A stretch of 64,000 nucleotides of DNA, taken from assembly GCF_044324875.1 (NCBI RefSeq), contig NZ_CP172185.1. One strand, written 5' to 3'. Shown piece after piece: positions 29,622 to 32,413 of this stretch. The position numbers and the translations under genes were made by a program. The notes beneath the pieces were generated by a model. That model did no database searches and had not been told where the DNA came from. It saw only the letters and a program-made list of their open reading frames with translations. This DNA comes from Escherichia coli (GTDB lineage: Bacteria; Pseudomonadota; Gammaproteobacteria; Enterobacterales; Enterobacteriaceae). Numbering within the stretch: the stretch's first letter is position 1; each line of letters begins with the position of its first letter.

Positions 29622-30779
29622 TTATTGTCCTGCGAGTTGCTGAAGGGCTGTGATGACGCGGTCGGCATCGGCGGTGGTCATATCCGGGAACAGCGGCAAC
29701 GAACAGATGCGTTCGCTATTCCATTCGGTATTCGGTAACGACAGCGTGGGAAAACGCTCGCGATAATATTTTTGTGTGTGAGCGGCGCGGAAATGTAACC
29801 CGGTACCAATGCCTCTTTCTTTTAACGCTTCCATCAACGCATCGCGACTGATACCACAACGTTGTTCATTGACACGAATAATAAACAGATGCCAGGCGTG
29901 AACGTGCGGCCAGGCGGGAAGGCTTAATGGCTGAAAGGGGAGAGCTGCCAGTGCTTGCTGATATTGCAGAGCAATTTCGCGCCGACGGGTGTTGAGGTGC
30001 TCTAATTTGGCTAACTGGGTCAGGGCAATCGCGGCGTTAATATCGGTCAGATTATACTTATAGCCCGGCGTTAAGACTTCAGCTTGCGGTGCACGGCCCC
30101 AGGTTTGTCTGTCATAGGCATCGACACCCAGACCGTGAAATTTCAGCATCCGTAGCAGGCGGGCAAGGTTTTCATTATCTGTAACAATCAGGCCACCTTC
30201 CGCACAGGTAATATTTTTGATGGCGTGAAACGAAAAAATAGCGGTACCTTTTGCGCCAATATGTCGCCCTTTGTAATACGTACCGACGGCATGGGCAGCA
30301 TCTTCGATAACTGCGATGCCGTAACGTTCGCCAATGGCGCGAATGGCGTCAATATCTGCTGGCGCACCGGCATAATGCACCGGAATGATGGCTTTAGTGC
30401 GTGGCGTAATGGCTGACTCGATCGCTTCAGGCGTGACCATCAGCGTATCGCGGTCGACATCCACCATTACCGGCGTTGCACCCAACAAGGAAATCATATT
30501 GAGGGTTGAAACCCAGGTCAGGGAAGGCGTAATCACTTCATCGCCCTTGCCAATTTCCAACGCCATTAGCGTGATATGCATTCCGGCGGTGGCTGAACTG
30601 ACCGCGATGGCATGCTGATTTCCCGTCAACTGGCAAAAGGCTTGTTCAAGCGCCTGATTCTTCGGACCGGTTGTGATCCAACCGGATTCGAGAACCTCTT
30701 TAACTGCAGCGAGTTCCTCCACGCCCATTGCTGGTCGCGAAAAAGGCAAAAATTCTGACATTGCTTTTCCTTCCGCCAT
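29622..30779 (-). CDS. arnB: UDP-4-amino-4-deoxy-L-arabinose aminotransferase (PLP-dependent)
   Basis: DegT/ArnB-type aminotransferase. Start taken at [10 protein letters not shown] (385 aa); the ORF track starts 5 codons upstream at 30794. Confidence 0.9.
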
Positions 30780-30859
30780 TGAATACCTGTCCACTTATAT
30801 TTGCTATAAAGAGTGTTGTGTATATTTTGCCATTTGGAGCAAAATTTTAAGGATAGAAT

Positions 30860-30876
30860 ATTAACTTAACCTTAAG
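30860..30876 (-). promoter_or_regulatory. Putative PmrA (BasR) box upstream of arnB
   Basis: Minus-strand CTTAAG-gttaa-GTTAAT resembles the YTTAAK-N5-YTTAAK direct repeat, about 70-90 bp upstream of the arnB start; consensus quoted from memory. Confidence 0.45.
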
Positions 30877-31068
30877 AAACTAATATTAGACGTAAATATT
30901 GAAATTTTTATATTTTTTCTTATTTAGGCTTTGCATTTGGCAAAATTTTGAGGCATTTTGCCGGCATCGCAGGATTTTTAATATTACACCAACTGCTAAT
31001 TATCGCCAGAAATGTCGCTCAATTTCACGGTAATTGTCTGGTTGCGCTTGTCTATAGGTGGAGTTTAC

Positions 31069-31671
31069 GTGTTAGCTTTTTGCCGCTCTTCGTTGAAGTC
31101 AAAAAAATATTTCATCATTTTACTGGCGCTCGCTGCAATTGCCGGACTGGGTACTCATGCCGCCTGGAGTAGCAATGGTTTGCCACGTATCGACAATAAA
31201 ACGCTGGCCAGACTGGCACAGCAGCATCCGGTTGTCGTTTTGTTTCGCCATGCTGAACGTTGCGATCGTTCAACCAATCAATGCTTGTCAGATAAAACAG
31301 GTATTACGGTCAAAGGTACCCAGGATGCCCGTGAACTGGGCAACGCTTTTAGTGCTGATATCCCTGATTTCGATCTTTATTCCAGTAATACCGTCCGGAC
31401 CATTCAGTCGGCGACCTGGTTTTCAGCGGGTAAAAAGCTGACGGTAGATAAACGACTTCTTCAGTGCGGTAATGAGATTTATAGTGCAATTAAGGACTTA
31501 CAAAGCAAAGCGCCTGATAAAAATATCGTTATTTTCACCCATAATCATTGCCTGACATATATTGCTAAAGATAAGCGTGATGCGACATTTAAACCTGATT
31601 ATCTGGATGGTTTAGTCATGCATGTGGAAAAAGGCAAAGTTTATCTGGATGGGGAATTCGTTAACCACTAA
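31069..31671 (+). CDS. ais: Lipopolysaccharide core heptose(II) phosphate phosphatase Ais (PmrG)
   Basis: 200 aa from a GTG start ([14 protein letters not shown]...), signal peptide and histidine-phosphatase RHAER motif; the ORF track begins at an upstream in-frame ATG (31012). Confidence 0.85.
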
Positions 31672-32135: not shown

Positions 32136-32413
32136 AGGGGTATTCCTTATAAATAAAAAGAAACCATGAGAATACGGTAACTCAGAAATATGTGAAAGTG
32201 ACAGTAATCTCTTTTGCGATGATAACTACATTTATTATTATTTTTGTGTGTATCGATAAAGTGTGTTTATTTTTTCGGCGTTTAATTATTTAAGAAGTAT
32301 TTAGTTACAATAAGTGACTAGATCCCTTTTTTCGCTCATTGAATCCTCTGCGCCAGGCAGTACAATCCCGCAGCTTTGGGAATTTTGATTAATTGCTTGT
32401 GGGAAAGAGGATA

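Follow-up and report, generated by a model that had tools for sequence, protein, structure and literature searches.

The PmrA (BasR) site of the arn promoter has been described for E. coli, Salmonella, and Klebsiella, and the box considered here is that already known site. Members of the PmrA regulon that carry CTTAA-N5-CTTAA include yfbE (arnB), yjdB, yibD, ugd, and ais (PMC1525208). The pbgP promoter is treated as PmrA-activated and Fe3+-induced in Salmonella and Klebsiella (PMC2565834); in E. coli, pbgP has been treated as PmrA-activated and Fe3+-induced, and ais likewise as PmrA-activated (PMC3140997). Additionally, serum RNA-seq data show a joint decrease of ais, arn, yibD, yjdB, and ugd (PMC4145685). 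A 2023 study of an EPEC strain marks CTTAAGGTTAAGTTAAT in its arn promoter as the PmrA consensus "with a slight modification" (PMC10729948). A full-text literature search for a pmrG or ais promoter found nothing. The Salmonella pbgP site was reportedly footprinted by Wosten and Groisman in 1999, and BasR binding is said to be reported in the BasR SELEX paper of Ogasawara et al. from 2012.

The published consensus, YTTAAK-N5-YTTAAK, is a direct repeat of two half-sites 5 bp apart, with an 11-bp period. Verified Salmonella boxes have the form CTTAAG-N5-XTTAAT, in which the first base of the second half-site is free (PMC3973317). The pbgP PmrA box1 of K. pneumoniae (TCTTAATATTATCCTAAGC) likewise has two hexamers in direct repeat, 5 bp apart; they are bound head to tail, and the first half-site is the stronger (PMC2565834, PMC3973317). 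About 23 bp separate the end of this box from the start of PmrA-dependent transcription. The sequence CTTAATATTATCCTAAG has been footprinted by PmrA, with protection from -22 (PMC2565834), and has been bound in vitro and characterized by NMR and calorimetry (PMC3973317).

The sequence analyzed here, termed the window, is a 64-kb stretch of an E. coli chromosome. Among 5426 complete E. coli genomes, 5418 match a 701-bp query spanning the box, and 5414 contain the 140 bp surrounding it. On the minus strand, arnB, the first gene of arnBCADTEF, occupies positions 29622-30761 in the RefSeq (PGAP) annotation, or 29622-30779 with the start used in K-12. On the plus strand, ais (pmrG) is annotated by RefSeq at 31069-31671, starts with GTG at 31069, and encodes the LPS core heptose(II)-phosphate phosphatase. 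The spacer between the two genes is 307 bp long (289 bp with the K-12 start) and has an A+T content of 67%; the region 30795-31068 extends from the start of the longest possible arnB reading frame to the ais start. Three in-frame arnB starts are candidates on the minus strand: ATG 30761 (PGAP, 379 aa), the ATG equivalent to 30779 (K-12 RefSeq, 385 aa, 18 nt upstream of the PGAP start), and GTG 30794, which opens the longest reading frame. A motif at these starts, ATGGC.GAAGGAAA...ATG, is kept in E. coli, Salmonella, and Citrobacter. The wider neighborhood, menE-pmrD-arn-ais-nudI-yfaZ, has been rearranged repeatedly, such that arn (with or without pmrD) is missing in several lineages and ais in others.

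Within this spacer, the box CTTAAG-GTTAA-GTTAAT (CTTAAGGTTAAGTTAAT) lies at 30860-30876 on the minus (arnB-sense) strand, with half-site 1 at 30876-30871 and half-site 2 at 30865-30860. It occurs once in the 64-kb window, exactly in the form CTTAAG-N5-GTTAAT given by an earlier note made from the sequence alone. That note had placed it 70-90 bp upstream of arnB, which is roughly right: the arnB-proximal end of the box (30860) is 98, 80, or 65 bp from the start codon at 30761, 30779, or 30794, respectively. The box matches the published consensus at 11 of 12 positions, the single mismatch being a G at the first base of half-site 2, and it fits the Salmonella form CTTAAG-N5-XTTAAT exactly. K-12 is identical in the box, in the promoter-like hexamers on both sides of it, and in a second conserved element on the ais side that is described below.

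The closest comparison is with Salmonella enterica, in which pbgP (pmrH/arnB) and pmrG have the same genes, synteny, and divergent layout (arnA-arnC-arnB facing pmrG-nudI-yfaZ). The E. coli box aligns column for column with the site in the Salmonella pbgP/pmrG spacer, CTTAATGTTAATTTAAT, which matches the consensus at 12 of 12 positions. In both organisms a -10 hexamer follows 10 bp downstream of the box, and the element TTTGCn-N17-GCATTTT is present on the ais side, in Salmonella 110 bp before pmrG. The two differ in detail: Salmonella has a 12/12 box with the -10 hexamer TAGGGT, whereas E. coli has an 11/12 box with TAAAAT, and the box and the ais-side element are 43 bp apart in the former and 53 bp apart in the latter. 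In the Klebsiella and Raoultella loci, CTTAATATTATCCTAAG is found 153-156 bp ahead of the ATG. The Klebsiella loci resemble E. coli in having TAnnnT 10 bp downstream of the box, but their second half-site is CCTAAG, and the greater distance to the ATG is due to a second, PhoP-dependent promoter between box and gene; no PhoP box is reported in the E. coli lineage (PMC2565834). A search of the 2 kb upstream of arnB revealed no ais homologue in the Klebsiella loci. Within K-12, the boxes of eptA (pmrC; CTTAAGGTTGGCTTAAT) and waaH (yibD; CTTAATAGTTTCTTAAT) are followed, like that of arnB, by a -10-like hexamer after 10 bp, and eptA has CTTAAGGTT in common with the arnB site. Unlike the arnB box, both match the consensus at 12 of 12 positions and each serves a single gene or operon rather than a divergent pair.

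A short AT-rich consensus may be matched by chance, and the counts within the window are of little help in this respect. With at most one mismatch allowed, the window contains 4 matches to YTTAAK-N5-YTTAAK, where 2.84 are expected, and a site of at least 11/12 arises in 17% of dinucleotide shuffles of the spacer. By itself, the consensus match is weak in so AT-rich a spacer. Since neither the window counts nor the shuffles are significant, the case rests on comparative data, and in these the conservation and fixed geometry of the site are decisive. Orthologous boxes are present in at least 80 Enterobacterales genomes, at a fixed distance from a -10 hexamer. Additionally, a weight matrix built from 46 distinct non-Escherichia orthologous sites scores it at 24.6 bits, which ranks first among approximately 128,000 window positions and more than 10 bits above the next best (13.9 bits); the same matrix gives 16.7 bits for the K-12 eptA box and 13.3 bits for the waaH box. 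That the box is a functionless chance match, as the shuffles and the unremarkable window-wide count would allow, is thus scarcely credible, and the comparative data exclude a pure chance match. The PmrA/BasR assignment, put forward tentatively in the earlier note, is borne out by the Salmonella alignment, the promoter geometry, the weight matrix, and the published annotation (PMC10729948) alike.

One further box-like site in the window was rejected. The sequence TTTAAGAAGTATTTAGT at 32289-32305 (plus strand) matches the consensus at 11 of 12 positions and lies about 108 bp upstream of yfaZ. Its first half-site is not conserved, only the second half (TATTTnGTTACAA) being kept in Salmonella and Citrobacter, and it is probably no PmrA box and likely a chance match. 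The conserved yfaZ promoter is apparently TTGATT...TACAAT, downstream of this site.

The arrangement of the arnB promoter was compared across 82 arnB loci, of which 80 are from other Enterobacterales and two are Salmonella loci reached via the PmrG protein. For each arnB upstream region, the best box on the sense strand was taken as the anchor, and Markov-1 sequences served as controls. In this set of loci, which are phylogenetically related rather than independent, a sense-strand box of at least 11/12 is present in 63 of 82 upstream regions (control mean 5.1, maximum 13), and TAnnnT lies exactly 10 bp downstream of the box in 73 of 82 (or 73 of 81) loci (control mean 1.0, maximum 4). On the antisense strand, TAnnnT at the same 10-bp offset was found in none of the 82 regions. 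In the window, the fixed 10-bp gap is ATTCTATCCT (30850-30859, minus strand), and the predicted arnB -10 hexamer is TAAAAT (30844-30849, minus strand), in place of which E. albertii has TAGCAT, Salmonella TAGGGT, and Citrobacter TAATCT or TATCCT. Only two islands of the spacer are conserved in an alignment of six species, and one of them consists of the box with its immediate flanks (TTTCTTAAGGTTAAGTTAATATTC). The layout is that of OmpR/PhoB-family activators, with the box taking the place of the -35 element. In promoters with PhoB pho boxes, direct repeats with an 11-bp period lie 10 bp upstream of the -10 and replace the -35 element, although their recognition sequence and regulator differ from those of the PmrA box.

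From this geometry, arnB transcription is predicted to start at 30836-30838 on the minus strand, about 7 nt after the -10 hexamer. A start near 30837 would place the box at about -39 to -23, which is consistent with the K. pneumoniae PmrA footprint starting at -22 (PMC2565834). A sigma-70 scan returned two other candidates, TAGACG-16-TATATT (30887-30914, plus strand) and GTGAAA-18-GATAAT (31028-30999, minus strand); both lie in non-conserved sequence and were rejected as main promoters.

Several further features of the arnB leader were observed. A conserved C(C/T)AAATG at 30831-30833 (minus strand), a few nucleotides past the predicted arnB start, opens a tiny upstream reading frame, the product of which, read by eye, is MAKYTQHSL* in E. 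coli, MAKYT* in E. albertii, MR* in Salmonella, and MK* in several Citrobacter; the motif could be either a start-region signal or a mini-ORF. A gapped direct repeat relates TTTGCCATTTGGAGCAAAATTTTAAGG (30828-30854) to TTTGCATTTGGCAAAATTTTGAGG (30930-30953), so that the -10 and start region of arnB resembles the ais promoter element, and this repeat may be an old internal duplication. In Citrobacter amalonaticus (locus L005, positions 1700-1990), about 210 bp of extra sequence, presumably an ERIC-type intergenic repeat, separate the PmrA-dependent promoter from arnB, and the box lies 310 bp from the ATG.

The second conserved island lies at approximately 30929-30962 and, read towards ais, has the invariant core TTT[A/G]AGGCATTTT in the six-species alignment. 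It is separated from the box by an AT-rich, poorly conserved spacer (30877-30929), the length of which is 53, 43, 40, or 32 bp depending on the species. Its bipartite element, TTTGCn-N17-GCATTTT (30930-30959), was seen only in loci carrying ais; it is present in all 12 of these, in which its columns are the sole invariant ones besides the box and the ribosome-binding region. On the plus strand, the candidate -35 region is TTTGCAT (30930-30936; conserved as TTTGCnTT), and the candidate -10 region is GCATTTT (30953-30959), the hexamer CATTTT (30954-30959) of which follows TTGCAT by 17 bp; both regions are invariant in the 12 ais loci. Directly downstream of GCATTTT, the sequences of these loci diverge completely, which fits transcription starting there. 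TTGCAT (30931-30936) and CATTTT are poor sigma-70 matches and were not called by the promoter scan; together, they are likely to be a weak sigma-70 core promoter of ais with a start near 30966. The predicted start interval, read from the bipartite element, is 30964-30967 and would imply a 5' UTR of about 103 nt to the GTG at 31069. The expectation in the earlier note that the same spacer must also hold the ais promoter is thereby supported by a conserved, ais-linked element, with a start that is predicted.

Natural deletions bear on this assignment from both directions. In seven Citrobacter loci without ais, the box and the arnB -10 are kept and the bipartite element is missing; in C. werkmanii, for instance, nudI directly precedes arnB. 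Conversely, arn genes are absent near ais in Intestinirhabdus alba, C. rodentium, a C. freundii assembly, and one metagenomic contig, and in C. tructae an arnT-like gene faces ais. These five ais loci without an adjacent arnB retain both a box of 10-12/12 and the bipartite element. The reciprocal deletions thus support the assignment of the element as the ais promoter. The spacer contains one box and two conserved promoter-like elements, and the box stays with either gene after reciprocal deletion. In the arn-less loci, TAnnnT is also still present at 10 bp from the box where arnB used to be, and survival of the box in them could reflect recent deletion of arn rather than selection via ais.

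Each of the 12 ais loci has, 32-53 bp upstream of the bipartite element, a PmrA box that matches at 10-12 of 12 positions. The gap between the two changes mostly in steps of about one helical turn, which is suggestive only, hinting at face-of-helix activation from approximately -98, -88, and -77, and the spacing classes (53, 43, and 32 bp, with a single 40 bp) rest on about three independent indel events. The possibility that the box replaces the -35 element for ais as well was rejected, there being no conserved TAnnnT 10 bp away on the ais side. No second full PmrA box for ais (at least 10/12) was found in the spacer, except for the reverse reading of the CTTAAGGTTAAGTTAAT site. A TTTAAG half-site is present beside GCATTTT in most species, and E. 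coli has TTTGAG at this position. An RNA element in the spacer was also considered and rejected: an Rfam scan gave no match, and Salmonella does not keep the inverted repeat that E. coli has at 30939-30962.

Two other readings accept the box as a genuine regulatory site and differ in what it does. As proposed for EPEC, it may act mainly via QseB, the closest PmrA paralogue, with bound PmrA blocking RNA polymerase and repressing arn (PMC10729948). That study reports a gel shift by QseB~P, the protein used being QseB and not PmrA, of a 60-bp oligonucleotide identical to window positions 30838-30897, and a constitutive rise of arnB in a pmrA qseC double mutant (PMC10729948). A repressing PmrA is difficult to reconcile with an activator geometry (the box in place of the -35 element and 10 bp from the -10) that is conserved in 73 of 82 loci and shared by the PmrA-activated eptA and waaH promoters, or with work that treats pbgP as PmrA-activated and Fe3+-induced in E. 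coli (PMC3140997), Salmonella, and Klebsiella (PMC2565834). Cross-binding of QseB to the PmrA box is plausible and fits with PmrA activation, which it does not replace; control mainly through QseB, with PmrA as repressor, is therefore considered improbable.

Alternatively, the box may serve arnB only, with ais under an independent regulator at 30930-30962 and its co-regulation with arn indirect. About 98 bp separate the box, which is reversed relative to ais, from the predicted ais start, the ais side lacks a second full PmrA box, and the inverted repeat GGCAAAAT-N8-ATTTTGCC (30939-30962), which overlaps the predicted ais -10, could bind another dimeric protein. This repeat is not conserved in Salmonella, however, and all 12 ais loci, including the five without an adjacent arnB, keep a box of 10-12/12 at 32-53 bp upstream of the element. 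Furthermore, ais (pmrG) is reported to be PmrA-activated (PMC1525208, PMC3140997). An arnB-only box is thus unlikely, and the preferred reading is that of a divergent arnB/ais control region with one PmrA (BasR) box, for which the probability is estimated at roughly 0.85. Established directly here are the sequence itself, its orthology with the boxes of Salmonella and Klebsiella, the fixed distance from box to -10 hexamer, and the association of the second element with ais; the literature supplies the binding of PmrA to boxes of this type and the dependence of pbgP and pmrG expression on PmrA in E. coli.

Under the shared-region reading, PmrA~P would bind the arnB-sense strand as a head-to-tail dimer, with one subunit on CTTAAG (30876-30871) and the other on GTTAAT (30865-30860). 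Positioned in place of the -35 element, 10 bp upstream of TAAAAT (30849-30844), it would recruit RNA polymerase directly, in the style of the PhoB family, and arnBCADTEF transcription would start near 30837. For ais, the same box would lie in the opposite orientation about 98 bp upstream of the predicted start, and PmrA would activate the weak TTGCAT-17-CATTTT promoter (30931-30959) from a distance, across the AT-rich spacer. Both transcription starts and the distance activation of ais are inferred. A more specific proposal is that both back-to-back promoters are driven, in different ways, from one asymmetric site for a PmrA dimer, namely by -35 replacement at arnB and by action from approximately -98 (-88 or -77 elsewhere) at ais, and that the box persists without arn because ais needs it; the chances of this proposal being correct are judged to be about even.

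A natural insertion in the box was observed in one human faecal isolate (strain 266917_2, NZ_CP026723.1), in which IS1 lies inside half-site 1 with a 9-bp target duplication corresponding to 30868-30876. A complete box stays on the arnB side, and the ais side retains only CTTAAGGTT, about 0.8 kb from the complete box. This insertion, which splits the box, is a possible test of shared arnB/ais control.

Overall, the PmrA/BasR site at 30860-30876 switches on the arn operon and probably also the neighboring ais gene. What is added here to the known site is a quantification, across Enterobacterales, of how well the arrangement of box, 10-bp gap, and -10 hexamer is conserved, together with a predicted ais core promoter, its relation to the box, and comparative evidence for both genes using one box. 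The addition of aminoarabinose to lipid A by the arn operon is a main route to chromosomal polymyxin and colistin resistance, which makes the control site of the operon clinically relevant.
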